Of a DNA stretch of 64,000 bases, positions 3,863-50,862 are shown piece by piece; the stretch's first letter is position 1; every line of letters begins with the position of its first letter. The notes under the pieces are model-generated. The model searched no databases. It had not been told where the DNA came from and saw only the letters and a program-made list of their open reading frames with translations. Source of the stretch: Bacillota bacterium (lineage in GTDB: Bacteria; Bacillota; SHA-98; UBA4971); contig JASEJE010000020.1 of the NCBI GenBank assembly GCA_030024085.1, forward strand, positions 129-64,128, read 5' to 3'. A program made the position numbers and the translations under genes.

Positions 3863-5452
3863 GTGAGCAACAACAGCCTGCGTGCAGGCGGACTACGGCA
3901 AAGCCGCGCCAGGTTACAGCAAGACAGCAAGGCCAACCAGCCCATTCTAGAAATGGTCGGCATCACCAAGCGTTTCCCTGGGGTTCTCGCCCTCGACTCG
4001 GTGGACTTCCGGCTCATGCGGGGCGAGGTTCACGCGATCGTCGGCGAAAACGGAGCGGGCAAATCCACACTCATAAAGATCCTCGCCGGCGCTCACCAGA
4101 GGGACGCGGGCACCGTGTACCTCGACGGGCGGCCGGTGAGCATATCGTCCCCCGCCGACGCTGCGCGCCTCGGCATCAGCGTGATATACCAGGAATTCAC
4201 GCTCGTCCCGGCGATGACCGTGGCAGAGAACATACTGCTTTCGGACCTACCTGTGCGTCGGGGCGGGATGCTCGACAAGCGCGCCATCGTTTCCTGCGCA
4301 AAAGACGTGCTCGACGACCTGGGCGTCGACATCCCTGTGACTGCAACCGTCAGGTCGCTACGGGTGGCAGAACAACAGATAGTGGAGATAGCCAAGGCCC
4401 TGTCGCGCAAGGCCAGGATCATTGTGATGGATGAACCTACCGCCGCGCTAAGCGAGATGGAGGTCGCCCGGCTGTTCTCCATCATCCACTCCATGGTCGA
4501 GCAGGGCGTTTCCATCATCTACATATCCCATAAGCTCGATGAAGTGTTCAGGATAGCCGATACCATCACCGTCCTCAGGGACGGCCGGAGGGTCTCGACC
4601 ACGCCTACTTCCCTTCTCACGCTCACGAAGGAACGGATCGTCCACGAGATGGTCGGGAGAGACCTCGGAAACATGTTCCCAAAGGAGGAGGTCGCTCCAG
4701 GCGACGTAGTGCTCGAGGTGAAGAATCTGCGCCTACCAGGGGGGCCGTCTCCCATCTCGTTCAGCGTCAGGGCTGGCGAGATAGTCGGGGTAGTCGGCCT
4801 GATGGGCGCGGGGCAAATCAGATTGGCAAGGGCGCTCTTCGGTCTGGAGCGGATCGCCGGGGGCGAGGTGAAGATCAGGGGAAAGGCTGCTGACCTGCGG
4901 TCGCCGCTTTCTGCGGTGCATGCGGGTATCGGGTTGGTGACGGAGAACCGCAAGGAAGAAGGCCTCGTGCTGCCGCTATCGGTCGCCAGGAACATCACGC
5001 TTGGCAGCCTTGACCATGTGTCAACGCTGGGCGTGGTGTCGCAGAGGAAAGAAAGGGCCGTAGTGGATGAGAAAGTGGCCGAGCTCGGCATCAAGACCCC
5101 GTCGATTCGCCAGCTCGTGCGCAACCTGTCCGGAGGGAACCAGCAGAAGGTCGTCCTGGCGAAGTGGCTTACTGTCGATCCGGACGTCATAGTCCTCTGC
5201 GAGCCTACGCGCGGGATCGATGTCGGCGCGAAGGTGGAGATATACAGGTTGATGGGGCTCATGGCGTGGCAGGGTAAGGCCATTCTCCTGATCTCATCGG
5301 AAGTGCCCGAAGTGGTCGCCATGAGCGATAGGGTCCTGGTCATGCACTCCGGCAGCGTCGTATGCGATCTCCCCAGGGAAGAAGTCTCGCAGGAGTCAGT
5401 CATGCAGTACGCGACAGGAGGGAACGCCCTTGGGTCGCACATCGTTAGCTGA
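3863..5452 (+). CDS. rbsA: ribose ABC transporter ATP-binding protein (two fused ABC domains)
   Basis: Two Walker A motifs (GENGAGKST; GLMGAGQ) and an LSGGNQQKVVLAKWL signature. True start is probably a little downstream of the ORF-track start, near LEMVGITKRFPGV. Confidence 0.9.
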   Translation: MSNNSLRAGGLRQSRARLQQDSKANQPILEMVGITKRFPGVLALDSVDFRLMRGEVHAIVGENGAGKSTLIKILAGAHQRDAGTVYLDGRPVSISSPADAARLGISVIYQEFTLVPAMTVAENILLSDLPVRRGGMLDKRAIVSCAKDVLDDLGVDIPVTATVRSLRVAEQQIVEIAKALSRKARIIVMDEPTAALSEMEVARLFSIIHSMVEQGVSIIYISHKLDEVFRIADTITVLRDGRRVSTTPTSLLTLTKERIVHEMVGRDLGNMFPKEEVAPGDVVLEVKNLRLPGGPSPISFSVRAGEIVGVVGLMGAGQIRLARALFGLERIAGGEVKIRGKAADLRSPLSAVHAGIGLVTENRKEEGLVLPLSVARNITLGSLDHVSTLGVVSQRKERAVVDEKVAELGIKTPSIRQLVRNLSGGNQQKVVLAKWLTVDPDVIVLCEPTRGIDVGAKVEIYRLMGLMAWQGKAILLISSEVPEVVAMSDRVLVMHSGSVVCDLPREEVSQESVMQYATGGNALGSHIVS

Positions 5453-6428
5453 AATCGTCAAACGGTTCGGGATGGCTTTAATGCTGATAGCCATCATTGC
5501 CGTAGTGTCAGTGCTCAACCCCAGGTTCTTCAGCGTCTCCAACTTCCTCATAATCATGCGCCAGGTTGCGATCAACGGCACCCTGGCTGCTGGCATGACC
5601 ATGGTCATCATTTCGGGAGGCATCGATCTCTCCGTCGGCGGAAATGTGGCCTTCGCGGGGTGTCTCGCAGCAGGAGCCTTGCGTGCGACCTCCAGCCCGG
5701 TGCTAGCGATCCTCGCTGGGCTGGCGGTCGGCGTGGCGGTGGGGCTCGTCAACGGGCTGTTCGTCGCCTACCCGAAGATGCCCCCGTTCATCGTCACGCT
5801 GGCAACTCTGGCTCTGTGCCGCGGGCTGACTCTGGTCTACACAGGCGGCCGCCCACTCCTGGTCGATTCGAGGGTATTCGACTTCCTGGGAGGCGGCTTC
5901 GTATGGGGAATCCCGTTCCCAGTGTTGATCATGGTGGGGATCTACGCTCTCGTTTACTTCCTCACGAACAACACCAAATTCGGCAGGATGGTCTATGCTA
6001 TCGGCGGAAACGAGCAGGCCTGCCGCCTCTCTGGTATCAATGTGGAGAAGTTCAAAACGGCAGTGTACACGCTCAGCGGCCTCACTGCCGGCATTGCCGC
6101 GGTCATCCTTACGGCCCGTCTCATGTCTGCGCAGCCCACGGCAGGCGCCGGGTATGAGCTCGACGCCATTGCCGCTGTCATTCTCGGAGGGACCAGCCTG
6201 TCCGGTGGAGAGGGAGGGATAACCGGAACGGTGATCGGCGCGTTCATCATAGGGGTTTTGGCCAACGGCCTTAACCTCCTGAACGTCTCCCCGTTCTACC
6301 AGGAGGTGGCAAAGGGACTCGTGATCCTGGCGGCAGTGCTCATGGATAAGCTTATCCACACCACTGCCACCCAAGTTGAGGGTGTGCCCTTGGTGGGCGA
6401 ACGTGTGGACGCACACCAGAAACAGTAA
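5430..6428 (+). CDS. rbsC: ribose ABC transporter permease
   Basis: Multi-TM branched-chain/ribose permease family sequence. Its start overlaps the rbsA stop, consistent with translational coupling. Confidence 0.9.
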   Translation: MGRTSLAEIVKRFGMALMLIAIIAVVSVLNPRFFSVSNFLIIMRQVAINGTLAAGMTMVIISGGIDLSVGGNVAFAGCLAAGALRATSSPVLAILAGLAVGVAVGLVNGLFVAYPKMPPFIVTLATLALCRGLTLVYTGGRPLLVDSRVFDFLGGGFVWGIPFPVLIMVGIYALVYFLTNNTKFGRMVYAIGGNEQACRLSGINVEKFKTAVYTLSGLTAGIAAVILTARLMSAQPTAGAGYELDAIAAVILGGTSLSGGEGGITGTVIGAFIIGVLANGLNLLNVSPFYQEVAKGLVILAAVLMDKLIHTTATQVEGVPLVGERVDAHQKQ

Positions 6429-6527
6429 TGGCAACGACCGGTCGATAACCGAGGATCAGCCGAGAACGAGGGGCCGGCCCGTAACCAGCAAGAATTCAGC
6501 CGGTAGGCGCGTGGAGGTCGAGGTACG

Positions 6528-6944
6528 TTGAAAAAGTCCGGAATCATCAATCCATGCCTGTGCGAGGCCATTGCCAGCCTTGGACATACCGATTCGCTGA
6601 CAATATGCGACGCAGGGCTGCCCATTCCAGCAGGTGTGAAGCGGATCGACGTTACTGTCTCCAGAGGTGTGCCCACGTTCGCGCAAGTTCTGTCAGCGAT
6701 CGCACTAGAGCTCGAGGTCGAGCGGGCCGTGATGGCGGAGGAAGCCGTGAGTGAGAACCCTGAGGTCGTGGAGTTGGTCCGAAGCACGTATCCTGGGGTC
6801 ACAGTCGAGTTCGTCCCCCATGAGCGTTTCAAGAAGCTGGTCGAGCAGAGTAAAGCGGTGGTGCGGACGGCGGAGTTCAAGCCCTTTTCCAACGTGCTCC
6901 TCTACTCAGGGGTTGCGGGGCTGTTCGAGAGATCCGCCGGATAG
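6528..6944 (+). CDS. rbsD: D-ribose pyranase
   Basis: MKKSGIINPCLCEAIASLGHTDSLTICDAGLPIP matches the RbsD N-terminal signature. Confidence 0.9.
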   Translation: MKKSGIINPCLCEAIASLGHTDSLTICDAGLPIPAGVKRIDVTVSRGVPTFAQVLSAIALELEVERAVMAEEAVSENPEVVELVRSTYPGVTVEFVPHERFKKLVEQSKAVVRTAEFKPFSNVLLYSGVAGLFERSAG

Positions 6945-6978
6945 CCGACAGCAAAGAGGAGGTGGTAAACCGAGGACT

Positions 6979-7170
6979 CTAAGTGTGAGTTCAGAAATCC
7001 GTGCCGGTTTGGGAGAGGATTCCGGGTTGCCGGTGCTTGCACGACGGGGCGTCGAGAATTTGGCTAGCCTTAAGCGCCAAATTCGAACGAGGCTCACCGC
7101 ACGCGCCGTCCCTGGAGGGCAGTACCGGCAACCCTGGAAAAGTGGCGGTGATTTCTGAACCCACACTTAG
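6979..7170. repeat. MITE-like palindromic structured repeat, copy 2 (variant 2, TIR CTAAGTGTGAGTTCAGAAATC / GATTTCTGAACCCACACTTAG), inside the rbs operon
   Basis: Same hairpin core as copy 1 in the opposite orientation, with ~21-bp near-perfect terminal inverted repeats. Located between rbsD and rbsB. Confidence 0.8.
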
Positions 7171-7185
7171 TGGGATTCCAACAAG

Positions 7186-8163
7186 GTGTTGCCCGGTGTC
7201 ACAGATGTCGTCAGTGTCTCGGTGCCGTGCTCCCAAATCTTACGCGAAAGGCAGGTCAGTCACATGAAGGCGTCTAGAATCCTTGTGGCCATTCTGTGTG
7301 TAGCCCTTTTCGCAACCCTGACAGGCTTTACGGCAGCGGCGACGAAACCGAAGGCAGGTCTTGCCATATCTACGCTCAACAACCCGTTCTTCGTGGACCT
7401 CAGAGACGGGGCGCTCGAGGCAGCCGCCAAGGTTGGAATGGAGGTCAACGTGGCGGACGCCCAGAATGACCCCAACAAGCAGCTCAGCCAGGTCGAGAAC
7501 TTCATCCAGGAACGCGTTGATATAATCCTGGTCAACCCGTGCGACTCTGCGGCTATCGTGCCCGCGATAAAATCGGCCAACGCCGCCAAGATACCCGTGA
7601 TCACGGTGGATAGGGGAGCCGACGGCGGCAATGTGGTATGCCACATCGCGTCCGACAACGTCGAAGGCGGGCGGATGGCCGCCGAGTACCTCGCGAAGCT
7701 CCTCAACTACAAGGGCAGGGTCGTGGAGCTCGAAGGCATACCCGGAACCTCGGCCGCGAGGGACAGGGGCAAGGGCTTCAACGAGATCATCAAGAAGTAC
7801 CCCAACATCCAGGTGGTGGCGAGGCAAGAAGCCGGGTTCGACAGGGCCAGGGGCATGACTGTCATGGAAAACATCCTCCAGGCGCAACCCGCCATCGACG
7901 GGCTCTTCTGCCACAACGACGAGATGGCTCTTGGCGCCCTGCGCGCCATCGAGGCCGCCGGCCGTCTCTCGGCCGTCAAGATCGTTGGGTTCGATGCGAC
8001 CGACGATGCCGTGAAGGCCGTGAAGGAAGGCAAGATGGCAGCCACGGTCGCCCAGAAGCCGCGAACCATGGGAGCCATCGCAGTAGAGACGGCCAGGAAG
8101 GTGCTTGACGGTGCAAGCGTTAACGAGTTCATACCTGTCCCGCTCGAGCTTGTCACGAAATAG
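7186..8163 (+). CDS. rbsB: ribose ABC transporter substrate-binding lipoprotein/periplasmic protein
   Basis: Probable start at MKASRILVAILCVALFATLTG (~7264), giving a signal peptide. Type-I periplasmic binding fold motifs (INNPFFVDL...ILVNPCDSAA...FDATDDAVKAVKEGKMAATVAQ). The ORF-track 5' end overlaps the repeat. Confidence 0.9.
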   Translation: MLPGVTDVVSVSVPCSQILRERQVSHMKASRILVAILCVALFATLTGFTAAATKPKAGLAISTLNNPFFVDLRDGALEAAAKVGMEVNVADAQNDPNKQLSQVENFIQERVDIILVNPCDSAAIVPAIKSANAAKIPVITVDRGADGGNVVCHIASDNVEGGRMAAEYLAKLLNYKGRVVELEGIPGTSAARDRGKGFNEIIKKYPNIQVVARQEAGFDRARGMTVMENILQAQPAIDGLFCHNDEMALGALRAIEAAGRLSAVKIVGFDATDDAVKAVKEGKMAATVAQKPRTMGAIAVETARKVLDGASVNEFIPVPLELVTK

Positions 8164-9798: not shown

Positions 9799-12486
9799 TC
9801 AGAGACCGACGATGGCCGCGACTCTGTCTGCGTATTCCTGCGCCCTGCGAGCGGCGGCGCCCTCGGTGACGGCCTCAGAGTAAACGTGGATGAACGGCTC
9901 CGCCGGGTCGGGGAGCACCAGCAGCCACCCGTCATCGAAGAAGAGGCGCAGGCCGTCGATGAACTCCCGCCGCATGTCGCCCGTTTCCTCGGCGAGCACG
10001 CGCATGACCCGCCCCTTGTGTTCCCACGGACAAGGCACCGACCGGCGCTCCATGGGCGGGATGGCGAGGCTGTCCACGACGTGCGACAGCTTCACGTCCT
10101 GCCTTGCGAGGAACTCGAAGACCTTCGCCAGCGAGAACATGGCATCGAAAGCCGGCTGGAACCTGGGGAAGACGAACCCGCCCTCGGTATCGCCTGCAAA
10201 CAGGATGTCCTGGCCGGCCTTGGAGGCGAACTCCATGAGCGACCGCGCGTCCTGCCTCGTGCGCACTATCCTCGCGCCGTTCTCCGCGGCGATCCGGTCC
10301 ACGCCACCTGTGGCGGCCACGGTCACAGCCACGACCGGCCCCCCGTCCCCGTCCCCGCTCCCACTCCCGCTCCCATTCCCACTCTCACTCTCACTCTCAC
10401 TCCCACTCCCGGTGGGGGATGCAAGAGCAAATCTGGACGCGCCGGAGGAGGCGGAGCTGGGGCCGAAGGCAAGGGCCCGGGCGCCGGCCGGACCGGCGGC
10501 TGCGGCATCGAGTGCAAAGTACCCCGTCGCGTCACGTATCGCAAGCCACGCCACGGTCGCTAGCAGCGTGTTGCCCTCCACGACCCGTCCTGACTCATCC
10601 ACGAGGGCCAGGCGCTCACCGTCGCTTTCCACCAGTACCCCCACGTCAGCCTTGAGCGTGCTCACGGTCTCCGACAGCTTCTTGAGATGCGCCGCCCGGT
10701 CGTCGCGGGTTTTCGGGGCGCGTGAGTGGTCAGGGTACGCGTTCAGGGCAACCATCTCACATCCCAGCCGCCCGAAGATGCTCGGCAGGAACATCGACAG
10801 CCTGCTATACGCGTAGTCCACCACCACGCTCAGGTGAAAGTCTGCGACAACCCTGGCATCCACGTAGTTGAAAAACGACTCCGTATAGGGCTCCAGCACG
10901 CGGCCGGGGAACTCCAGCTTCCCCACCTCGTCCGCGTCTGTGCGACGGAAGTCCTCCCGGAAGAAGATGTTCTCGATCTTGCGCTCGTGTGCCCTGGGCA
11001 GGTTTATGCCCTGCCTGTTGAAAATCTCGATGAGCGTGAGCCTCGGGTTGTCCGGAGACACCCGGATGTGCACCCCGCCATCCACGCCAAGGGTCTTGAT
11101 GTTGTAGCGGCTGACTGGGAGGGGCGTGGAGCGCAAGTCGAAGATGTTGACGCCCACCGTCATCAGGCCGCAGATGATGGACCGGAGGATCATCCTGGAC
11201 GCCGGGTGGTCGTCGCGGCTGGTGGTGACCGTCGCCCCCTTGCCGATCGAGCTGCCGAACGATGCCCCGAGCTTCATGGCAAACTCAGGCGTGAGCTCGA
11301 TGTTTGTAAGGCCCGTCACACCCCTGTCCTTGAAGATGGACCCTGGCCACTTCGTGCCCCAGATGAGGCTCATGGTCACGCGCGACCCGGGCTCGATGAC
11401 TTTATTCGGCCAGACCTTGATCTGTGGCTGGAGTATGGCGCCCTGTTCGATCCTGCACCTGTCGCCAACCACCACGCCCTCGTGGCACGTGACGAAGTCC
11501 TTGATGATGGCGTGCTGGCCGATGACGGCGCCCCGTATCTCGGTACCTTTGCCCACGAAGGTGTCCTGCCACAGGGTGCTCCGCTGGATCACCGCGTCTT
11601 TCTCGATTATGCAGTTGTCGCCCATGAACGTGTACTCGAAGCAGCCCGCGCCAGGGTTTATCCGGCAGTTGCGGCCTATGACGAGCGGGCCCGACAAGCG
11701 GCTGTCAGGGGCGATATCCGTGCCCTCGCCGACCCAGATGTCGGCTCCGATCTTGTTGCCCGGGATCTCCAGCTTCACCTTGCCCGTCACGGCGTCCACC
11801 TGGGCCTGCCTGTATTGCTGGATGTTGCCCACGTCGCACCAGTACCCCGACGCCACATGCGCATACAGCCTCTTACCGTCGCGCAGAAGTGCCGGGAACA
11901 CGTCCTGGCTGAAATCGGTGGACTTTCCCGGGTCTATGTAGTCGAGCACCTCGGGCTCGAGGATGTAAATCCCCGTGTTGACGGTGTCGCTGAATACCTC
12001 GCCCCAGCTCGGCTTCTCGAGGAACCTGCGTATCCTGCCCTCGTCATCGGTGACGACGATGCCGTACTCGAGCGGGTTATCCACCCGCGTGGTGACTATG
12101 GTGGCAACGGCCGACCTCGTTTCGTGGAACCTCACGGCCTCATCGAGGTCGATGTCGGTGAGGGCATCCCCGCTTATCACGAGCACACGCTCCCGGCCGA
12201 ACACCTCGGCGGCCTTCTTCACGCTGCCGGCCGTGCCCAGGGGCACGTCCTCCACCGAGTAGGACAGGTGCAGGCCCAGCTCGGCCCCGTCCCCGAAGAA
12301 GCTCTCGATCTCGTCGGCGAGATAGTACAGCGTGACCGCTATGTCGGTAATTCCGTGGCGCTTCAGAAGCTCGAAGATGTGCTGGATGATGGGCTTATTG
12401 ACCACGGGCACCATCGGCTTCGGACGGTTGCACGTGAGCGGACGCAGCCTGGTTCCCTCTCCACCTGCCATGACCACCGCTTTCAT
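9799..12486 (-). CDS. bifunctional sugar-1-phosphate nucleotidyltransferase (NTP-transferase plus left-handed beta-helix) / phosphohexomutase (PMM/PGM family)
   Basis: N-terminus [28 protein letters not shown] (nucleotidyltransferase G-rich loop), central hexapeptide-repeat region, C-terminal PGM/PMM domains ([11 protein letters not shown], sugar-binding loop). Contains an in-frame [23 protein letters not shown] insert encoded by CTCACT hexanucleotide repeats. Confidence 0.8.
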
Positions 12487-12522
12487 GCTAAGCCCCCCAC
12501 TCGCGATGCCGACTCTCTCCTT

Positions 12523-14628
12523 TCACCTCTTACACAAAGGACTTTTGCCGGACAGGATCGAGAAGTCGAGCCATGGGAACGGGTCGTCGAGTTCGCTCAC
12601 CGTGACAAGGTAGCGCCTGCCTTCCTCGCAAGCCTTCTCGTCCAGCCCAGCCCCAAGGAGATGCTCGGCGTAATCCATGAGCCTATCGAACCTTTCGGCA
12701 TGCTCTCTGAAGCGCTTTGCCCCATACTCCGTCGCCTGACGCTCCGTCACGAGGAACGGCCAGTCGCTCGACATGAGCAGGAAGAACTCGCGGAGCGCCT
12801 GGGCCTCCACACCTTCGAGAAGGCCGGCGCATGGCGACGGCGCACCGCCTGGGCTGCCTGCAGCACCCGCAGTGCCTCCAGAGCTTGCGATGCCGGAAGG
12901 GCGGGAAGAGCCGGAAAGGCCCGCGGGGCGGGCAAGGCTTGCAACGCCCGTCGCACCCGCCGCGGCCGGGATGCCCTCAACCTCCCCCGTCTCTTCCTGG
13001 CCTTCCGCGCCCCCACGGTCGTGCCGACCCGGGGGACACAGCGCAGCAAGCCGCTTCACACGCGCCTCGGCTGCATGGATCATCTCCCACATCCAGGCCG
13101 TGTTGTCGTTGAGCCAGACGTCGTGCCTGCCACCACGTCCCCACGACGACTCCGGGACGTCCATGGCATCCTCCGGCGGGTGCTCGTCGAGCACCTGGCC
13201 TGCAGACTTCACCGCCACGGCGGTGCTCCCTGAGAACCCCTCGAGGACCGCGCCGAGCCAATCGACGCCTTCATACCACCAGTGCCCGAAAAGCTCGGTG
13301 TCATAGGGAGCCACGACCACACCGTGCTCACCGGTGCTCGCCCACCAGTCGGCCACGAGCTCGTGGACGAGCCCTACAAAGTGGGCGGCGTGCTCTCTGA
13401 GCCTGGATGATGCGGCGGCCGCGTCATAGAGCTCCTTCGCGCCAAGGTCGGTGTCCCTGGACGTGACCCGCCAGTACTGAAGCCCTGAGACGTCGTCCTT
13501 CCTGTGGAATTCGCGGTATAGCCCGTCGCCGGGGTAACCAAGCCAGGAGGACCACACCTGGGTCGTCACGCGTTCGTTCCGCCCGAAGCAGGCCACTCTC
13601 GACCCGCCCACGAGGTAAGGCCTGAAGGTCGTCCGTGCCGGCGCGTTCGGGCTGGCGCCGCGCGGCCCTGAGCCGCCGTCCGCACCACTGGACCCCGCCT
13701 CGCGCCCTGACGCGGCGGGCCATGGCGCGGGGTGTGCCGCGGCCCCCGCCGCGCCCGTGTCGCCTGTGCCCTCCTCCTTCGGCCGTCCGCCGCCGCCGCC
13801 GCTCGCTATCCCGATGGGCTCGCCACCCTCCACGGCATGCCTGTCAACGAAGAAGTACTCAAGGCCAAGAGCCTGCAGGTATTCCTCCAGGCCCGGCCTG
13901 TATGCGCATTCCGGCAGCCAGATCCCTCTCGGCGCCCGTCCGAACCGTCTGACATAGCTCTCGCACCCAGCGGCAAGCTGCGCCCGGATGGATGTATCTT
14001 CCTTCAGGAGCGGCAGATACGCGTGGGTGGCCGCGGATGTGATGATCTCGACGACCCCGCGCTCCTGCAGCGCGCCGAACGCCCCCGCGATGTCCCGCCC
14101 ATACTCGCTGCGGAAAGCGTTTATGGCCCGGCCGTATCTCTCGCAATACGCCGCCGCCTGCCGCTCGCGCACGCTATCGCCTGCAAGCCTGAACCGCCCG
14201 CGGTCGTCTTCGGCCCGCGCAAGGTGGGCCTCCGCCCATGTCAGAAAACCCTCCCGCATATACTCATCGTCGAGCTGGTCGAGGAGGATCGGGGTGATGC
14301 CAATGGTCACACTTACGGGAGGTTTACGCGTCGCGGGGGTCCCCCTGCCGACCTGAGACTGGGCTTGGGCCTGGGCCTCGTACCGGGACTGGGACTGGGA
14401 CCGGGATTGGGACCGGCTCCCGGGAACCTGGTTCGCGACGGCCCTGAGGAGTTCCAGAAGCGGGATGTACGACTCCAGCATGGCCTCGTAGAGCCATTCC
14501 TCTCCGAAAGGCCACATGCCGGCCTTACGGCAGTAAGGTATATGGCTATGGAAGACGAACACGCAAGACCCACTGGGCCCGGCGTTGCCTGCGCCGGCAT
14601 GCCCTTCACCACGCACTTCGCTGGACAC
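12523..14628 (-). CDS. GH57-family alpha-glucan branching enzyme-like protein with large low-complexity inserts
   Basis: GH57 signatures FVFHSHIPY, THAYLPLL and GIWLPECAY. Two Gly/Ala/Ser/Pro-rich insertions make it 701 aa instead of ~520. Confidence 0.8.
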   Translation of the reverse strand: MSSEVRGEGHAGAGNAGPSGSCVFVFHSHIPYCRKAGMWPFGEEWLYEAMLESYIPLLELLRAVANQVPGSRSQSRSQSQSRYEAQAQAQSQVGRGTPATRKPPVSVTIGITPILLDQLDDEYMREGFLTWAEAHLARAEDDRGRFRLAGDSVRERQAAAYCERYGRAINAFRSEYGRDIAGAFGALQERGVVEIITSAATHAYLPLLKEDTSIRAQLAAGCESYVRRFGRAPRGIWLPECAYRPGLEEYLQALGLEYFFVDRHAVEGGEPIGIASGGGGGRPKEEGTGDTGAAGAAAHPAPWPAASGREAGSSGADGGSGPRGASPNAPARTTFRPYLVGGSRVACFGRNERVTTQVWSSWLGYPGDGLYREFHRKDDVSGLQYWRVTSRDTDLGAKELYDAAAASSRLREHAAHFVGLVHELVADWWASTGEHGVVVAPYDTELFGHWWYEGVDWLGAVLEGFSGSTAVAVKSAGQVLDEHPPEDAMDVPESSWGRGGRHDVWLNDNTAWMWEMIHAAEARVKRLAALCPPGRHDRGGAEGQEETGEVEGIPAAAGATGVASLARPAGLSGSSRPSGIASSGGTAGAAGSPGGAPSPCAGLLEGVEAQALREFFLLMSSDWPFLVTERQATEYGAKRFREHAERFDRLMDYAEHLLGAGLDEKACEEGRRYLVTVSELDDPFPWLDFSILSGKSPLCKR

Positions 14629-15005
14629 CTGTCGCGCGCAGCATCACGTGCCACGTCCGGCCGGTCCGCACACCACAAACCACAACCTGAGCGCAAGCCT
14701 GGGGATGACCGCATGGCAAATCGATGCGAGCCTGCGAACCCACGCTCAAGCCGTCCGCGCCGGCAGGAATGGCACGCGAGGCCCCGCTCCCCCCTTTCGC
14801 TCTTTCACTCGTCGTCCCGTTCACAAGTTCATTGTTCTGTGAACCCGGATGCCCACATTCATCCGGGGATCCGGGCCGCAGTCCGGTCGCAGCAACATGA
14901 GATGCGCCTCGCCGGCGGTTTCGGTGGTTTCCCCGTAGCTCTTTTCGCACCGCCGTCCGCCCGCCGCCGATCCACGGCCCGCTCGCCGCCCGCCCGCCTG
15001 CCTGC

Positions 15006-16220
15006 CTACCAGGACACGTGCGATGACTCATCGACCACACGCTGATACACAGACCGGGTCGAGGACGCCACCGAATCCCAGGCGTACCTGGAAAGCACCT
15101 CCTCGCGACCGCGTTGCGAGATGAAGCTTCGAAAACCCGGGTCGGAGAGCACCCTCTTGATCCCCCATGCCAGCGAGTCCGCGCTGCCCGAATACACTTT
15201 GACCCCTGTCTCGTCGTGCCTCACGACCTCCGCAAGCCCGCCGGTGTCTGACGCAACGACGGGCGTCCCTCTCACCATCGCCTCGAGGGCGACGATGCCG
15301 AAGGGCTCATACAGGCTGGGAAACACTGCCACGTCTGCAGCGGCGTAGAGCGCGTCGCGCTCCTGGTCGCTTATGCGTCCAGCAAAGCGCACGGCGCCGC
15401 CGAGACCCATGCTCTCCGCCTTCCCCCGCAAGACGCTCGCGTAATACCCATCCCCCGCGATGACGAACCGCGTGTTCGGCATCTCCGCGAGCACCTGCGG
15501 GGCCGCATCGAGCAGCACGTGAACGCCCTTCTCGTATACGAGCCTGCCCACGTAGAACACCACTCGGTCTTCGGGACGGGCGTAGCGCAGCCTCGTGTCG
15601 CGGATGAACTGCGGGTCTGGAGATGCGCCGGGGTCAACGCCGTTCGGAATGACGTCGATCTTGTCTGCAGGCAAGGAGAATATCCTCTTCAGCTCGTCTG
15701 CCATGTAGTGGCTGCAGCATATGACCCGCCATGCCTCGAAGGTGATCATCCACTCGACCTCATGAATATATTTCTGAAGGTCCGAATGGATGCCTCTGTT
15801 TCTGCCGTACTCGGTGGAGTGGACCGTAACGACAAGAGGTACGTGCAGCGCGTGTTTCAGGGACTTCGCCGCGAATGCCACGAGCCAGTCGTGGGCGTGA
15901 AGAACGTCATACCTCGGCCGACCCCGAACCTCCAGCACCGTGCGGCTGGTGAGGCCGAAGTTCGCTTCCATGACGGTGTGAAGGAAGCTTCCGCCGCCCC
16001 CGCCATAGGGGTCTGCGGTCGCCTGGATGGTGGAGCGCGCGACCCTTGAGACCTTTACGCCGTCCTGAACCGACGATGCCGCGTCGCCACCGGAACTTGC
16101 GCAAACGACGTGGATTTCGTCCTTCTGTTTGACGAGCGACCGCGCGAGCCCGGCAACCGCCGCGCCGAGCCCGCCGACGACTTCCGGCGGATACTCATAC
16201 GAAAGCATCAGAACGCGCAT
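15006..16220 (-). CDS. GT4-family glycosyltransferase (glycogen/alpha-glucan synthase-like)
   Basis: Credited from MRVLMLSYEYPPEVVGGLGAAVAGL (ATG ~16220, G-rich RBS); the upstream part of the ORF-track frame (to 16775) looks non-coding. C-terminal GT4 E-x7-E region (FPSLYEPFGIVALEAM). Confidence 0.8.
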   Translation of the reverse strand: MRVLMLSYEYPPEVVGGLGAAVAGLARSLVKQKDEIHVVCASSGGDAASSVQDGVKVSRVARSTIQATADPYGGGGGSFLHTVMEANFGLTSRTVLEVRGRPRYDVLHAHDWLVAFAAKSLKHALHVPLVVTVHSTEYGRNRGIHSDLQKYIHEVEWMITFEAWRVICCSHYMADELKRIFSLPADKIDVIPNGVDPGASPDPQFIRDTRLRYARPEDRVVFYVGRLVYEKGVHVLLDAAPQVLAEMPNTRFVIAGDGYYASVLRGKAESMGLGGAVRFAGRISDQERDALYAAADVAVFPSLYEPFGIVALEAMVRGTPVVASDTGGLAEVVRHDETGVKVYSGSADSLAWGIKRVLSDPGFRSFISQRGREEVLSRYAWDSVASSTRSVYQRVVDESSHVSW

Positions 16221-16377
16221 TGGGATCCGCCCCCCTGTATTACCATGGTTCGACAGATCGTTCCGCGTATCCTTCCGCCCTGCAAGATTCACAGGCCCAA
16301 AGGAATCTGCGCCCCGATGTAGTAAACAATACGCGAATGGAGGCGGTGCCCGCTCGCCCGGCGCACGGCAGCGACGG

Positions 16378-16440
16378 CCGCGCAGAGGCACGGAAGCGCA
16401 GAGGCGCGGAGACGCGGAGACGCGGAGACGCGGACACCCA
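16378..16440. repeat. GC-rich octanucleotide microsatellite (GCGCAGAG x2, GCGGAGAC x3) in a divergent intergenic region
   Basis: cgcagaggcacggaagcgcagaggcgcggagacgcggagacgcggagacgcggacacc, between the divergently transcribed GT4 and nitroreductase genes. Confidence 0.6.
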
Positions 16441-16463
16441 ATCGAATCTGGGGGGTTCGGTGC

Positions 16464-16979
16464 ATGGATCTCATGGATGCAATCAAGGAACGACGCAGCG
16501 TGCGGGCATATCAGGACAGAGACGTGGCCGCAGACAAACTCGAGAGGGTGCTCGAGGCCGCCAGGCTCGCGCCGTCCGCGAGCAATCGTCAGATGTGGAA
16601 GTTCGTCGTGGTGCGCGATCCTGACAGGCGCCGACTGCTGGCGGAGGCAGCGAACGGCCAATCGTTCGTTGCGCAGGCGCCCGTAGTGATAGCCGGGGTT
16701 GCGCTCCGCACGGGTCACGTCATGAGTTGCGAGGTCCCGAGCTACGCTGTGGACCTTTCCATAGCCATGGAGCACATCGCGCTGGCCGCGGCAGCCGAGG
16801 GTCTCGGCACGTGCTGGATCGGAGCGTTCTCACAGCCTAAGGCCAGGGAGATCCTGGGGGTGCCGGACCACTATAAGATCGTCGCACTCATGCCCCTCGG
16901 GTATCCGGCGGACAGCCCCAGGCCGAAAGTGAGAAAGCCGCTGGACGACATCGTGTGCTACGAGGGGTTCTCAGAGTGA
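16464..16979 (+). CDS. nitroreductase-family protein
   Basis: MDAIKERRSVRAYQDRDV...RLAPSASNRQMWKFVVVRD and the C-terminal GTCWIG motif are typical of the NADH/FMN nitroreductase fold. Confidence 0.85.
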   Translation: MDLMDAIKERRSVRAYQDRDVAADKLERVLEAARLAPSASNRQMWKFVVVRDPDRRRLLAEAANGQSFVAQAPVVIAGVALRTGHVMSCEVPSYAVDLSIAMEHIALAAAAEGLGTCWIGAFSQPKAREILGVPDHYKIVALMPLGYPADSPRPKVRKPLDDIVCYEGFSE

Positions 16980-17013: not shown

Positions 17014-18246
17014 ATGGACCAGACGGGCCGGACGGATCGGCGGGACCGGATGGACCGCCGAAACCTACGCGGTACGCGCGACGAGACACACGAGGCAGAG
17101 CGGCCCATACGCGGGCGGATTGGGAGGCGGCCGGGCACAATGACAGGCAAGGAGAAAGAAACCCGCAAGAAGCGTGGCAACAACAGCAGAATACCCAGGA
17201 GGACTCCATGGTCCATCGAGGAAGTCCGGGGAATGCCCAATGACAAGATCCTCGCGACTCTCCACGGGCTCGGCATCTCCATTTCCATGGACGACTTCCG
17301 CGAGCAGGTAAAGGAGTTCTGCTCGGCGGAAGACCTGAGCGAACGCTGGTTTGAGACGTACCACGCTACAGCCACCGGGTGGGACGAGGACTTTCCGTGG
17401 TACGCAGCCTGGGTGCTGTGGGAGCGGCTCGATGGCGACACCATCCCCTATGAAAGCATCAGCGACCTCATGGGGGAGGAGTTTCCCTTCGGCGTCGGCG
17501 AGGACGGAGAGGGCGTCCTTCTAGTGGACGTCCCGGGGTTCTCCGACGAAGACTACGACGATTCTGTGTTCGAGGATGAGGACGGGTCGGATGAGGACTA
17601 CGAGGACGAATACGAAGACCCGGACGAGAATGATGAGGATGAGGACGAGGATGAGGACGAGGACGAGGACGAGGGTGAGGGTGAGGAGGACGACCTCCCT
17701 GGGGATCTCGGATTCCTCGGGTCGTCTGCAGACATCTCCGTATGCTGGATGCAGCTTCGGGCGTGGGACTACATAAAGGCCCTTTTCTCGGGCAAAGCCA
17801 CGTCCATCGAGGAGGCCATGGAGATCTGCCCCACCGCCTCGTCGCTCGGGGAATGGTGCCTGGATCTTGCAGACACGCTGGGCTTTGAGGCCGCCTCCAG
17901 CCCGGTCCTGGCGCGCGAAAGGCTGCGCTTCACGAGGGAGTTCTGCGAGGTGTTCCCCGAAAGCGACGAGGAGTATATCCAGGCCATGCGGTGGGCGGAG
18001 GCTGAGACGCTATTCCTGCTCGACCGCGTCGCGGAGGGCGATGAGGTTTACAGGACCGTCGCTCAACAGTGGCCTGACTCGACGTGGGCCTTCATTCACT
18101 GGGGCGACGCATACGCGGACAAGGCTGAAGGGCGCCTCGAGTACGCGGCGAGGGCGCGGGAGATCTTCAACGCCGCGCTCCAGCATGCCGACGCTGACGA
18201 GGCGGAGATCATCCGCGACCGGCTGAAGGATCTCGGCGGGGCGTAA
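17014..18246 (+). CDS. hypothetical protein with a poly-acidic (Asp/Glu) tract
   Basis: No recognisable domain. Central DEDYEDEYEDPDENDEDEDEDEDEDEDEGEGEED tract encoded by GAG/GAC triplet repeats. Start uncertain (possibly MTGKEKE ~17140). Confidence 0.4.
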   Translation: MDQTGRTDRRDRMDRRNLRGTRDETHEAERPIRGRIGRRPGTMTGKEKETRKKRGNNSRIPRRTPWSIEEVRGMPNDKILATLHGLGISISMDDFREQVKEFCSAEDLSERWFETYHATATGWDEDFPWYAAWVLWERLDGDTIPYESISDLMGEEFPFGVGEDGEGVLLVDVPGFSDEDYDDSVFEDEDGSDEDYEDEYEDPDENDEDEDEDEDEDEDEGEGEEDDLPGDLGFLGSSADISVCWMQLRAWDYIKALFSGKATSIEEAMEICPTASSLGEWCLDLADTLGFEAASSPVLARERLRFTREFCEVFPESDEEYIQAMRWAEAETLFLLDRVAEGDEVYRTVAQQWPDSTWAFIHWGDAYADKAEGRLEYAARAREIFNAALQHADADEAEIIRDRLKDLGGA

Positions 18247-18270
18247 GCTACCCGGAAAGGGGGCAGGGCA

Positions 18271-18663
18271 GTGCAGGCACTTTTCCTTGTACTGAACAAA
18301 ACCGATCAGTTGAACCATGTTCTCAAGACCCTCTATGATTGCGGGGTGCGTGGCGCAACGATCATGAACAGCACCGGAATGGGTAGACAGCTCTCCCGGC
18401 AGATACCGATCTTCGCAACTCTGGGGTACCTGGCTGACGAGGACCGCCCGTACAATTACACAATCTTCGCAATCATGAAGGACGAAAAGGTGGTGCACGT
18501 AATCAACGCGCTCAACGCCCTTCTCGGCGACCTCTCGCGCCCCGGCACCGGCATAGTCTTCACGGTGCCCGTCGGAACGGTGGTGGGCCTTGCGCCGGAA
18601 GACGCCCTCGGCAGGCCCGGGAGTAGTGACAACCGAACGGATGGCCGTCGGGACAACGAGTGA
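18271..18663 (+). CDS. PII-like signal-transduction protein, closest resemblance to DarA/YaaQ (DUF970) c-di-AMP receptor
   Basis: VLNKTDQLNHVLKTLYDCGVRGATIMNSTGMGRQ resembles B. subtilis DarA ([30 protein letters not shown]) and the GlnB T-loop region. The C-terminal GTGIVFTVPV matches the PII/DarA beta-strand. Comparison made from memory of those sequences. Confidence 0.55.
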   Translation: MQALFLVLNKTDQLNHVLKTLYDCGVRGATIMNSTGMGRQLSRQIPIFATLGYLADEDRPYNYTIFAIMKDEKVVHVINALNALLGDLSRPGTGIVFTVPVGTVVGLAPEDALGRPGSSDNRTDGRRDNE

Positions 18664-18691
18664 ATAGGTCGGAGGCGCCTGCAGCCAGGCC

Positions 18692-19906
18692 GTGGTCGTG
18701 AGGAGAGACGCAATGGACATGAACATCGTGTTGAGCGGCGGGTTTCTTCTACTCGTGGGACTTGCCGCAGGAAAGCTCGCCAACTTGCTGAAATTCCCAG
18801 CCGTGACAGGGTATCTCGTGGCCGGCATCGTGGTCGGTCCGCCAGTGCTCAATCTGCTTACACATGACCTTCTTCGGGCGTCGATATGGATCAGCCATGG
18901 CGCGCTGGCCCTCATCGCGTTCAGCATAGGTTCGGAGTTCACCATCGACAACATCAGACGGCTGGGGACCCGGGTGCTGGTCATCGCAACGCTGGAGGCG
19001 CTGGGAGGCGCAACGGCTGTTTTTCTCGCGACACGGTTCGGTTTCCACAGACCGACGCCGGAGGCCCTTCTCTTTGGTGCCATAGCAGCCGCTACAGCGC
19101 CCGCCGCAACGATAATGGTGATCCGGGAGCTGAGAGCGAGGGGACCCATGACAGACACTTTGCTTGCCGTAGTGGCTATCGACGACCCCATCTGCGTCAT
19201 GATCTTCGGCGTGGCGTCGGGAATCGCCACCATGCTCATTGGCGACGGATCGCTATCCCTCGGATTAATGATCCTGCGGCCGATCGCGGAGATACTGAGC
19301 GCGCTCGGCATGGGCATCGCTGCCGGGATTCTCGCGGTGCGGTTCATGACGAAGATGCGCGATCGATCCGAGACTCAGGTCCTCATGCTCGGCACCATCC
19401 TTGGCACGGCCGGCCTGGCGATCGCGGCAGGGCTGTCGCCGCTCCTCGCCTGCATGGCCCTTGGATCGACCGTAGGCAACCTTTCGCGCCGGTCGGATGC
19501 CCTCTTCGCCGCTGTGAGGGCGCTGGATACTCCTGTGTACGTCGTGTTCTTCGTGCTTTCGGGAGCAGGTCTGCATGTCGAACTCCTCCGGAGCGTCGGA
19601 TTGCTTGGCATAGGTTACGTCGTGTTCCGCGTCGCCGGTAAGATCGCGGGCGCTGCGGCCGGGGGCGTTCTCACCAGGGCCCCCGCTGTCGTGCGAAAGT
19701 ACCTCGGGTTCGGCCTGGTGCCGCAGGCCGGCGTGGCGCTGGGCCTCAGCCTCCTGGTGAAACAGCAGTTTCCCGGGCTCGGCGACATGATATCGACGAC
19801 CATCGTGGCGTCAACCGTCATCTACGAGCTCATAGGTCCCGTATTCTCCAAGATGGGGATCGCGCTGGCGGGCGAAGCCGGCGCTGCTGCAGATGAAAGC
19901 GTTTAG
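18692..19906 (+). CDS. CPA2-family cation:proton antiporter (Kef/NhaP-like transmembrane domain only)
   Basis: 11-12 TM Na+/H+ exchanger fold with FPAVTGYLVAGIVVGP and GSEF motifs typical of CPA2. No C-terminal RCK/KTN domain. Confidence 0.8.
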   Translation: MVVRRDAMDMNIVLSGGFLLLVGLAAGKLANLLKFPAVTGYLVAGIVVGPPVLNLLTHDLLRASIWISHGALALIAFSIGSEFTIDNIRRLGTRVLVIATLEALGGATAVFLATRFGFHRPTPEALLFGAIAAATAPAATIMVIRELRARGPMTDTLLAVVAIDDPICVMIFGVASGIATMLIGDGSLSLGLMILRPIAEILSALGMGIAAGILAVRFMTKMRDRSETQVLMLGTILGTAGLAIAAGLSPLLACMALGSTVGNLSRRSDALFAAVRALDTPVYVVFFVLSGAGLHVELLRSVGLLGIGYVVFRVAGKIAGAAAGGVLTRAPAVVRKYLGFGLVPQAGVALGLSLLVKQQFPGLGDMISTTIVASTVIYELIGPVFSKMGIALAGEAGAAADESV

Positions 19907-37151: not shown

Positions 37152-38786
37152 CTAGCCTTTAGGCGCCGGACAGGCGGGGATCTGGATGACCTGGCCCACC
37201 TGGAGGTTCTCCGGCTGGATGCCCGGGTTTGCCTGGATTATCGCGGCCACCGTCGTGTTGTACTTTCGCGCCAGGGACCAGAGCGTATCACCCGGCTGGA
37301 TGGTCACCATGACGATCGTCGGCTGCGGACACGGCACCTCCGGCGGCTTCACGGCCACCACGGCGACCACCACGTTGAGCTGCACGGGCTCGGTGACCTT
37401 GGCGAACACGCTCACCAGGACCTTCGCGGTGAACCGCCTGTCTTCGACCACCTCGAAGTCCACGTGCTCGATGGCAACGCGCGTCTCGGCCAGGAAGCCC
37501 TCCTGCGTGCCGGGCACCTCGACCACCTGGGTGAACTTGAGGCGGTGCGACATGTGGTGCACCGGCTGGTCGCCCTCGGGGGTCTGCGCCACGTAAAGCG
37601 TCTGAAGCTCGACAACGCCCTCGACGATGACCTTGCCGTCGATGATCCTGTAAGACGCCTCTTTGACAGATGTGTCGATCCTGAGGACGCGCTCGATGTT
37701 GGGCTTCTCCCTCGGCACCTCCAGGGTCTCCTTGAGGATCGTCTGAACCGTGTCCTCGCCGATGACGTCCTCCACGCGGAGCAGCCTCTTCTCCACGTCC
37801 AGCACAGTGCTCTTGGACGTCACCTCGGTGACGACCTCGAGCTGCCTGACGACAGTCACCTTCGCGGTCAGCTTGAGCACCACGTCCACGCTGACCGTGC
37901 GGAAGTCAAGCTCGCTAAAACTCACCGCCTCGAGCACGAGCCGCACCTGAGCCCGCATGCCCACAGCCGCCCCGGGCACCTCGATGACCTGCGAGAACCG
38001 GAGCTGGGTCGAGAAGAAATGCACCGGCAATCTCGGCAGGTAAGGATCGTGAGGCACCGCCGCGTACAGCACGTCCACGTCGATCAGGCCCTCGGCTACC
38101 ACCTGACCGTCGAGCACCTGGACGTCCGTCAGGCGAGGTTTCGCCTCCGCACTGATGACAGATTCGATGTCCGGTTTCTCCGGCGGCACCGTGAGCCTCC
38201 CGCTGACGAGAGCCTGTGCCTGCGCCTCCCCAACGACATCCTCGACCTTCAGAAGCTCCCTGGCCACCTGCAGGTCTGGCGGGCCGGTGACCTCGGTCAC
38301 CACCTCGAGCTGTTCGGTCTTGGTGACCTTGACAGCGGCTGACAGGACGAGCCGCACGTCCAGAGTGCGCACGTCAACCAGATCGAATGCCACGTCGTGG
38401 ATGTCCACCTCGACAAAAGCGTTCATCGAGGGATCCGTGCCCGGCACCTCGGCGATGACTTCGAAGGATACATCCTGCTCAAGGAGTTGCACCGGCTGGG
38501 TGCCGGCGGCCACCCGTGCCACGTAGAGCACCCGCACCCTGATGGTGCCCTCCACGAGAACTTTGCCCTTTATGAGCTGGAATGAACTTGTGAGGACATC
38601 TGCATCGACGCTGATGATCTTCTCGGCGGTAGGCAGGTTCTCAGGGATCTTGAGCATCTCGCGCAGCACCTTGCGCGCCGTGGTTTCGCCGACGACCTGT
38701 TCGACCTTGAGGAGCTCCTCCTTGAGCTCGACACCCACAGCCATCTCCTCTCCCCCTTTCTCGTGACAGGCATGAAACCAGTACAC
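37152..38786 (-). CDS. multi-repeat DUF3794 protein with C-terminal LysM domain
   Basis: Four DUF3794 repeats plus LysM (IQPGDTLWSLARKYNTTVAAIIQANPGIQ). Stop is 22 nt from the next DUF3794 gene start. Confidence 0.75.
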   Translation of the reverse strand: MYWFHACHEKGGEEMAVGVELKEELLKVEQVVGETTARKVLREMLKIPENLPTAEKIISVDADVLTSSFQLIKGKVLVEGTIRVRVLYVARVAAGTQPVQLLEQDVSFEVIAEVPGTDPSMNAFVEVDIHDVAFDLVDVRTLDVRLVLSAAVKVTKTEQLEVVTEVTGPPDLQVARELLKVEDVVGEAQAQALVSGRLTVPPEKPDIESVISAEAKPRLTDVQVLDGQVVAEGLIDVDVLYAAVPHDPYLPRLPVHFFSTQLRFSQVIEVPGAAVGMRAQVRLVLEAVSFSELDFRTVSVDVVLKLTAKVTVVRQLEVVTEVTSKSTVLDVEKRLLRVEDVIGEDTVQTILKETLEVPREKPNIERVLRIDTSVKEASYRIIDGKVIVEGVVELQTLYVAQTPEGDQPVHHMSHRLKFTQVVEVPGTQEGFLAETRVAIEHVDFEVVEDRRFTAKVLVSVFAKVTEPVQLNVVVAVVAVKPPEVPCPQPTIVMVTIQPGDTLWSLARKYNTTVAAIIQANPGIQPENLQVGQVIQIPACPAPKG

Positions 38787-45121: not shown

Positions 45122-46210
45122 TCAGGAGGGCAAGGGCGTATTCTGCTGCCGGCCCGCGAATCCCCGAACCCGATCATCGAGCGCTGGGGCGTCCGTCGCG
45201 CGTCTGCCGGCCACGACGTCCTCATAGGCCGCGGCGGTGGCCTTTGCGGCATGTTCCCACGTAAAGCGTTCTCTCACGAGGACCGCGAGATCCTGCCGTC
45301 GCGGCGCGCTGTATGCCGCCACAACCGCGTCCCTTAGCGACTCGGCGTCGGCTGGGTCGCAGTACCAGGCGAGGTCTCCGAAGTAATCGCGTGTGGTGCC
45401 CCTGTCGGTAGACACGATGTTGCAGCCCGCCATCGCCGCCTCGAGACTTGCGAGGCCCGGCGTCTCGAACCAGCTCGGCAGCACGTGCACCCTCGCCGCG
45501 GCGTAGGCACAGGCGATCTGCGACTGAGGCATGAACCCGAGGAAATGGTGGCACGAGTCGGCCTCCTTCTTGCAAGCCTCGAAGTAGAACGGGTCGTTCA
45601 CCGGCCCGATGAACACCACGGGTAAGCCGAGGCCCCGCGTGGCCCTCACGAGGGCGAGCTGGTTCTTTCTCGGCGAGATCCTGGCGCAGCACAGCACGAA
45701 GTCGGCGACCGCGAACCGCGACGTAAACGCGCCGGGGTCGGCATCCGCGAAGCCCGGGTCGGCTCCGTTTGGCACCACGCGGTACGGCGCCACGACCCCG
45801 AGGTCCTTCTCGATGAGCCGCGCCTCGGCCTCGGCGTTCGGCAGGAGCATGGCCGTGCGCTCCACCACCCTGCGTCGCAACGGGTTGTCCCGGCGCCAGT
45901 ATTTCAAGAGCGCGCCCTGCTGCCGCGGGCTCTCATGCAAGATGTACTCCTCAGGGTTCCAGTAGATGGACGACACCACCACAGGCTTGCCCCGCCGCAC
46001 GGCGTTCTCGCACTGGGCCGCGGTCTCCGCCACCCTCGTCAGGTTGAAGAGATGCACGAGGTCATACCCGTCGAGGTCCGGCGCGAGCTCGCTCGTATGG
46101 TCCACCGTCACCCCGAGCGCTTGAAGCGCCCTCTTCGTCTCCAGGAGTTGCACGGTATCACCTGCAGGAAGGACGAGAAGGTCGGCCCTGCTCTGGAGAA
46201 GGACCCGCAT
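45122..46210 (-). CDS. GT4-family glycosyltransferase
   Basis: Motifs ISPRKNQ and PSWFETPGLASLEAAMAGCNIV (E-x7-E). 362 aa. Confidence 0.8.
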   Translation of the reverse strand: MRVLLQSRADLLVLPAGDTVQLLETKRALQALGVTVDHTSELAPDLDGYDLVHLFNLTRVAETAAQCENAVRRGKPVVVSSIYWNPEEYILHESPRQQGALLKYWRRDNPLRRRVVERTAMLLPNAEAEARLIEKDLGVVAPYRVVPNGADPGFADADPGAFTSRFAVADFVLCCARISPRKNQLALVRATRGLGLPVVFIGPVNDPFYFEACKKEADSCHHFLGFMPQSQIACAYAAARVHVLPSWFETPGLASLEAAMAGCNIVSTDRGTTRDYFGDLAWYCDPADAESLRDAVVAAYSAPRRQDLAVLVRERFTWEHAAKATAAAYEDVVAGRRATDAPALDDRVRGFAGRQQNTPLPS

Positions 46211-46322
46211 GTGTTCACCCCCTCACAACGTGTTAGCCCCCTCGCATTGGAAAGGCAGGTATCATCCCTGATACCTGCCCTGGTTTGTGGCCCGCCGGTC
46301 CCGGCCGCACCGCACTGCAGGG

Positions 46323-50749: not shown

Positions 50750-50862
50750 CCTTACTCAGTCATCTCGACGTCGCGCCTTTGATCTCGGCGTCGCCCCTGC
50801 CGTCACGTGCGGCAAGAGAGAGGTCCCCGGACGCGTCCCGGTCTCGTACAAACGAGCCTGAT

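Follow-up and report, generated by a model that had tools for sequence, protein, structure and literature searches.

Few signal processors in biology are as widespread as the PII proteins. To our knowledge, the transporters established as their targets have to do with nitrogen and inorganic carbon (AmtB, NrtABCD, UrtABCDE, SbtA and PotA). In one such pair, the T-loop of SbtB serves as a 'valve plug' that enters the inter-domain cleft of the elevator-type transporter SbtA. Cation/proton antiporters run down the proton-motive force and need tight gating, and the gates that we know of are RCK/KTN domains, either fused to the antiporter or acting in trans. KhtT–KhtU, KefF/G–KefC/B and AmhM–AmhT are systems in which a trans-acting regulator controls a CPA2 antiporter. 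Here we describe a locus in which a gene for a PII-like protein stands directly upstream of a gene for a CPA2-type antiporter that has no RCK/KTN domain. The locus lies in a stretch of 64,000 nucleotides from a Bacillota bacterium (GenBank assembly GCA_030024085.1, contig JASEJE010000020.1, positions 129 to 64,128 of the forward strand), which we call the window and to which positions refer unless another locus is named.

Taken together, the data suggest, with moderate confidence, that the PII-like protein is a ligand-controlled trimer that gates the co-encoded antiporter in trans. PII-transporter pairs and trans-acting CPA2 regulators are both already known, but the combination of a PII protein with an antiporter appears to be new. 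A full-text literature search, with most subscription journals outside its coverage, brought up no account in which a CPA or Mrp antiporter has a PII-like protein as its partner, and no report of a PII-like gene and an EIIA_2 gene heading Mrp operons.

The PII-like protein and its antiporter

The preliminary description of this DNA had placed a small gene directly upstream of the antiporter gene, and both open reading frames (ORFs) are indeed present on the forward strand, with the following features.

18254..18263, + strand: Shine-Dalgarno-like sequence GGAAAGGGGG, ending 7 nt 5' of the GTG start of the PII-like gene (read from the sequence)
18271..18663, + strand: PII-like gene, 130 aa, GTG start (ORF read; Pfam, homologues, AlphaFold2 model and Foldseek)
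18692..19906, + strand: antiporter gene, 397–404 aa, CPA superfamily, without an RCK/KTN domain (PF00999; nearest solved structure NapA)
18700..18705, + strand: GAGGAG ribosome-binding site, 7 nt 5' of the antiporter ATG at 18713 (read from the sequence)

The antiporter ORF encodes 404 aa if read from the GTG at 18692 and 397 aa if read from the ATG at 18713. The ATG is the likelier start because it has GAGGAG 7 nt upstream and because the gene calls of close relatives give 395–397 aa. Depending on the start, the gap between the two genes is therefore 28 bp (GTG) or 49 bp (ATG), and a scan found no terminator-like site between them.

A Pfam scan of the 130-aa protein gave a match to PF00543 (P-II) of 33 bits (gathering cutoff 25; E 8e-8), in which residues 10–106 align to profile positions 9–97 of 102. 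Twenty homologues were retrieved by a word-indexed search and PF00543 is present in 17 of these first homologues. An exhaustive profile search found 1,641 cluster representatives at E<=1e-3, of which 642 reached E<=1e-10, so this PII subfamily is large. When the family profile (alignment A1, 21 homologues) was compared with solved structures, GlnB and GlnK were matched over their full length (best E 3e-6). The AlphaFold2 monomer model has a mean predicted local distance difference test score (pLDDT) of 76, with a core above 90. Its elements (strand 2–8, helix 11–23, strand 29–35, loop 36–60, strand 61–69, helix 71–85 and strand 95–100) make up a beta-alpha-beta unit, a disordered loop of about 25 residues, a second beta-alpha-beta unit and a disordered tail. 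The long T-loop (about 25 residues) and short B-loop (about 9 residues) are the canonical PII layout. Among PDB structures, each of the best 50 Foldseek matches is a canonical PII protein or PotN, with GlnZ, GlnK, GlnB and PotN at the top. On the strength of the family match, the profile match to GlnB/GlnK and the fold matches of the model, we assign the protein to the PII family.

The preliminary description had likened the protein to the cyclic di-AMP (c-di-AMP) receptor DarA (PstA, family DUF970), an identity that was considered and rejected. There was no match to PF06153 (DUF970) at E<=1 in Pfam. In the structure-profile search the PstA chains 4d3g and 4wk1 reached only E~0.11, over profile positions 57–89 (33 residues), whereas GlnB and GlnK matched full-length. 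PstA is not among the best 50 Foldseek matches, and PstA/DarA proteins have the opposite loop layout, with a short T-loop and a long B-loop. The two profile checks proposed in the preliminary description thus went opposite ways, that against PF06153 being negative and that against PF00543 positive.

Although the fold is that of PII, the ligand site differs from that of GlnB/GlnK, and the loops and tail carry the following features.

18376..18450, + strand: predicted T-loop, residues 36–60, a low-pLDDT loop from strand 2 to strand 3 (model and conservation)
18541..18570, + strand: signature PGTGIVFTVP, residues 91–100, corresponding to the PII B-loop/strand 4 (GlnB D88 replaced by T and K90 by I)
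18601..18660, + strand: C-terminal tail, residues 111–130, variable and disordered (pLDDT <50; not conserved in A1)

In GlnB/GlnK the basic residues K58, K90, R101 and R103 hold the ATP phosphates and 2-oxoglutarate. All four are replaced here (K58 by N62, K90 by I95, R101 by G106 and R103 by A108) and the replacements are invariant or nearly so. The glycine-rich skeleton of the pocket is retained (G28, T30, G36, G38, R39, G92 and G94, with R39 corresponding to GlnB R38). The T-loop opens with a conserved G-M-G-R base, which aligns to GlnB G35-F-G37-R38, holds an invariant P46 and conserved F48 and L51, and closes at R59-P60. All 72 PII-like proteins from the genome loci described below, which were themselves selected with the motif, carry PGTGIVFTVP unchanged; metagenomic members show the variants PDTGILFTVP and ENTGIMFTL. 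The PROSITE PII signatures (C-terminal, [ST]-x3-G-[DY]-G-[KR]-[IV]-[FW], and uridylylation-site) match none of 243 family sequences, whereas the E. coli GlnB control matches both. Additionally, the NCBIfam P-II equivalog NF007946 failed (13.7 bits against a cutoff of 181). Because the residues that contact the ATP phosphates and 2-oxoglutarate are replaced, the protein is classed from its sequence as a non-canonical PII. In public records some relatives bear the name 'P-II family nitrogen regulator' and others that of 'nitrogen regulatory protein PII'; the former label is probably misleading for this subfamily.

The partner gene product matches PF00999 (Na_H_Exchanger; 97.7 bits, residues 21–377 of 404), which leaves only about 20 residues outside the transporter domain at each end. 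There was no Pfam match to TrkA_N, TrkA_C or RCK at E<=1, which bears out the earlier statement that the antiporter lacks an RCK/KTN domain of its own. Its best solved relative is the CPA2 antiporter NapA of T. thermophilus (structure 5bz2, E 1e-10). In an alignment of seven antiporter orthologues (A2, 36–86% identity to the window protein) the motifs ATAPAAT, DD, K310 and PQAGVA are invariant; they are listed here with residue numbers of the 397-aa form.

19091..19111, + strand: ATAPAAT motif, residues 127–133 (A2), aligned to NapA ATSVGCT
19181..19186, + strand: Asp-Asp pair D157-D158 (GACGAC) (A2), a CPA2-type signature aligned to the ion-binding D156/D157 of NapA
19640..19642, + strand: Lys310 (A2 invariant), aligned to NapA K305
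19721..19738, + strand: PQAGVA motif, residues 337–342 (A2 invariant), aligned to NapA PRGEVG

Since the Asp-Asp pair and the lysine align to NapA D156/D157 and K305, the antiporter looks functional and CPA2-like. The score against NCBIfam TIGR00932 (2a37) is far under the cutoff (48.1 against 238.3 bits) and we therefore speak of a divergent CPA2-type exchanger, as judged from these motifs, and not of a TIGR00932 member.

Recurrence of the pairing and the wider subfamily

Close relatives (74–89% identity) have the whole neighbourhood conserved and are therefore uninformative on the pairing. At 63% identity (locus L014) the PII-like gene is followed after a 3-bp gap by an Na_H_Exchanger gene, and the upstream neighbour is BioY and not the acidic protein found in the window (see below). 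A survey of species-representative genomes gave 80 loci, 72 of them analysable, and an antiporter gene directly follows the PII-like gene in 15 of the 72, a proportion to be taken as indicative only. In the antiporter-followed loci the gaps run from -8 to +61 bp, and divergent members are included (L023, L040, L081, L086 and L022-L028, PII identity 33–50%; for L023, L040, L081 and L086, PII identity 33–49% and antiporter identity 36–43%). Translational coupling of the PII-like and CPA2 antiporter genes is frequent, with overlaps of 4–8 bp in L023, L040 and L086. Neighbour-joining places the antiporter-linked PII-like proteins on at least four deep branches. Metagenome-assembled genomes of PRJNA950955 carry loci that are closely related and partly syntenic (L017-L021 and L040; proteins P0001 and P0002), and the contradictory taxon labels of these genomes (Bacteroidota, Clostridia, Betaproteobacteria, Ignavibacteriales and Bacillota) look unreliable.

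The reverse survey started from the antiporter. The antiporter alignment retrieved 80 metagenomic relatives (34–45% identity), of which 68 had at least 420 bp of upstream DNA. A PII-like ORF lies immediately upstream on the same strand in 39 of the 68, immediately downstream in two and divergently in one, so that it is adjacent in 42 in total. The gene-neighbourhood check proposed in the preliminary description came out positive in both surveys, and conservation across divergent lineages is what a trans-acting regulator predicts. The idea of a trans-acting partner for an RCK-less antiporter thus stands in so far as the PII fold, the antiporter without an RCK domain and the pairing across divergent lineages are concerned; the DarA identity that went with it does not.

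The antiporter-followed loci include a group (L022, L024, L025, L027, L028 and L084) in which two tandem CPA paralogues come after the PII-like gene (in L022 at about 5340-7830). The first of these (402 aa) has lost the ATAPAAT and DD motifs and in L022 is without a Pfam match; this paralogue may have degenerated into the non-transporting half of a heterodimer.

The subfamily is also linked to multi-subunit Mrp antiporters. In 24 genome loci, the PII-like gene is followed by a gene for an EIIA_2 (PtsN-like) protein, usually with a 4-bp overlap, and then by a complete Mrp operon (MnhE, MrpF, MnhG, MnhB, MnhC and MnhD). These are L036, L039, L041, L042, L045-L047, L051, L052, L054, L055, L059, L060, L062-L064, L066-L068, L070, L072, L073, L076 and L077, and the hosts are Spirochaetota, Fermentibacteria, Moduliflexus-like bacteria and others. 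L033 and L071 are also Mrp-linked, for a total of about 26; in L071, where no EIIA gene intervenes, mnhE directly adjoins the stop codon of the PII-like gene. Altogether about 41 of the 72 analysable loci are linked to a cation/proton antiporter of either kind. The architecture of Mrp (CPA3) is unrelated to that of CPA2, and two unrelated antiporter architectures therefore share a PII partner. This raises the possibility, which we put at slightly less than even, that the subfamily mainly gates monovalent cation/proton antiporters, both single-gene CPA2-type ones and multi-subunit Mrp ones with an EIIA(Ntr)-like protein, as a phylogenetically broad and undescribed system. Domain fusions among the profile-search matches join the PII-like domain to a PrmC methyltransferase (PrmC-PII, P0036), to PilZ (PII-PilZ, P0129) and to EIIA_2 (EIIA_2-PII, P0085); PilZ is a domain that binds cyclic di-GMP (c-di-GMP).

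The PII-like gene of the window is preceded at 24 bp by one further gene.

17014..18246, + strand: gene for a 410-aa protein with a long poly-Asp/Glu tract (about 60 residues)

This acidic protein was assigned no Pfam family and is kept only in close syntenic relatives. Its gene may belong to the same operon and be co-transcribed with the PII-like gene. Upstream, at 9799-16775 on the reverse strand, is a glycogen or alpha-glucan gene group that includes a fused NTP_transferase-phosphoglucomutase (895 aa), a GH57 branching-enzyme-like protein with a low-complexity insert and a GT5/GT4 synthase. On the other side, also on the reverse strand, are genes for three SipL/SPOCS-domain proteins, one with LysM (37152-38786, 46323-48617 and 48614-50749), interleaved with several GT4-type glycosyltransferase genes (one product of 1,097 aa) at 45122-57940. 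This group looks like a spore-coat or exosporium glycosylation cluster, and from the SipL/SPOCS genes the host is taken to be a spore-forming member of the Bacillota. A scan of the whole window at Rfam gathering thresholds found no RNA family (no riboswitch, tRNA or rRNA family).

A candidate gating mechanism and its alternatives

As a member of the PII family, the protein would be expected, by comparison with all PII proteins studied, to be a homotrimer whose inter-subunit clefts take up a small effector. The ligand is expected to be an adenine nucleotide, sensed otherwise than through the canonical MgATP/2-oxoglutarate contacts. The long, flexible T-loops would dock on the cytoplasmic face of the co-encoded antiporter and either plug its cytoplasmic funnel or arrest its elevator movement. 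K+(Na+)/H+ exchange would in this way be gated by the cell's metabolic status, and the regulation that RCK/KTN domains provide in KefC, CpaA and KhtU would here be given in trans.

Several observations weigh against this mechanism. CPA antiporters, as far as they have been studied, typically form dimers, in contrast with AmtB and SbtA, whose trimeric state suits that of PII, and a symmetric 3:3 plug is therefore impossible. The T-loop residues P46, F48 and L51 are common to subgroups with different partners, so that they fit ligand binding equally well as partner recognition. The partner proportions from the genome survey are biased, as PGTGI[VLA]FTV was the motif from which that survey started. 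Additionally, the pairing is not universal within the subfamily. Some PII-like genes adjoin VKOR-DsbA or DUF748/AsmA-like genes. In Gemmatimonadota, the genes after the PII-like gene encode a DUF948-like protein of 148 aa and a Zn-dependent phospholipase C, the PII-like gene itself is divergent from an EPSP synthase gene, and there is no antiporter within 5 kb of it (L029-L031, L034, L037, L038, L043, L053, L056, L057, L061, L069, L074 and L075; L001-L005). Finally, about 26 of the 68 metagenomic antiporter relatives are without a PII-like neighbour, and no recurring partner was found among them. In favour of the mechanism, the upstream slot in two of these relatives is taken by a gene for another small sensor module, a phosphotransferase system EIIA_2 protein (L114, 1362-1817; 119.6 bits) and a CBS-pair protein (L139, 24-437; 63.3 bits), respectively.

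The alternative that survives best, though we consider it unlikely, is that the two genes are co-expressed without contact between their products. The PII-like protein would then regulate another target, or would sense an ion, pH or bicarbonate and relay the signal by way of a second protein, for example the EIIA(Ntr)-like one. The position of EIIA_2 between the PII-like and antiporter genes in the 24 Mrp-linked loci fits this explanation, as do the EIIA_2-PII fusion, the T-loop motifs common to partner classes and the members of the subfamily that adjoin non-transporter membrane proteins. Consistent with such a relay, EIIA(Ntr) is an established regulator of K+ transport, acting through TrkA and KdpD (PMC9239096, PMC13445646). 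However, no EIIA gene is adjacent in the CPA2-linked loci, the window included, and in these translational coupling of the PII-like and antiporter genes is frequent; adjacency is kept over large divergence; and in L071 no EIIA gene intervenes even before an Mrp operon.

It is improbable, more so than indirect signalling, that a DarA-like receptor relays the level of c-di-AMP to the RCK-less antiporter. c-di-AMP controls K+ transport in Bacillota, and the host is a spore-forming member of that phylum, as judged from the SipL/SPOCS genes and from the titles of the closest loci. The lost triphosphate-binding Lys/Arg residues are compatible with a ligand that is not a triphosphate, and SbtB, a PII-like protein of the same PF00543 type, binds c-di-AMP (PMC8654305). 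Against this stand the family, fold and loop results that excluded DarA and the lack of a c-di-AMP riboswitch or any other Rfam match in the window. A Pfam scan of 20 further window ORFs, which make up the majority of the likely genes, found no c-di-AMP metabolism gene and no c-di-AMP or K+ signalling gene. The subfamily, moreover, spans many phyla and partners, including the fusion to the c-di-GMP-binding PilZ, and nothing in the data favours c-di-AMP as the ligand.

That an ordinary GlnB/GlnK nitrogen regulator stands beside the antiporter by chance is very improbable indeed, for although the PF00543 match and the public names of relatives speak for such a regulator, the NF007946 score and the PROSITE signatures fail, none of the basic residues K58, K90, R101 and R103 is kept, the window ORFs scanned include no nitrogen gene nearby such as amtB or glnA, and the antiporter pairing recurs far above chance.

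If gating by the PII-like protein is correct for CPA2-type and Mrp antiporters alike, it would bring a new regulatory signal to bear on pH, Na+ and K+ homeostasis, which would join ammonium and bicarbonate as the third kind of transport under PII control. It would mean that the PII ligand site is used without the canonical ATP/2-oxoglutarate contacts, and a subfamily of at least 640 sequence clusters, at present wrongly labelled 'nitrogen regulator', would gain a function. The locus would also offer a simple two-gene system in which to study how a trimeric PII protein engages a non-trimeric transporter.

Comparison with known systems

SbtB–SbtA resembles the window locus in that a PF00543-type PII-like gene stands beside the gene of a secondary-active, elevator-type transporter, in a comparable gene order and a tight operon. 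The transporters differ, SbtA being a trimeric cyanobacterial Na+/bicarbonate transporter and the window protein a CPA2-type cation/proton antiporter, of a family whose members are typically dimers. Neither the sequence matches to solved structures nor the best 50 fold matches of the PII-like protein include SbtB. Additionally, the redox-sensitive C-terminal R-loop of SbtB has no counterpart in the PII-like protein, in which the tail is disordered and variable.

GlnK–AmtB shares with the window locus a PII gene that adjoins the gene of the regulated membrane protein, and GlnK/GlnB are the closest proteins in sequence and fold, with the same long T-loop and short B-loop. In contrast with GlnK, the window protein has neither K58, K90, R101 and R103 nor the uridylylation motif, it fails the PROSITE and NCBIfam tests, and its target is not an Amt channel. 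PotN is likewise a non-canonical PII-like protein of the Bacillota that is encoded with a transporter (potABCD of lactobacilli), and it came third in the fold search (7o4x). However, its sequence similarity is weak (E 0.13) and its partner is the ATPase of an ABC transporter and not a secondary antiporter. DarA/PstA belongs to the same broad superfamily of PII-like folds, is of similar size and is found in Bacillota; it differs in that the window protein has no PF06153 match, shows marginal similarity and has the opposite loop layout.

Finally, KhtT–KhtU, KefF/G–KefC/B and AmhM–AmhT are, as is well established, pairs in which a small soluble regulator is encoded beside an antiporter that either has no regulatory domain of its own (KhtU and AmhT) or has one that the regulator supplements. 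These regulators are RCK/KTN or flavodoxin-like proteins, whereas the regulator proposed here has the PII fold, and the window antiporter is below the TIGR00932 cutoff.

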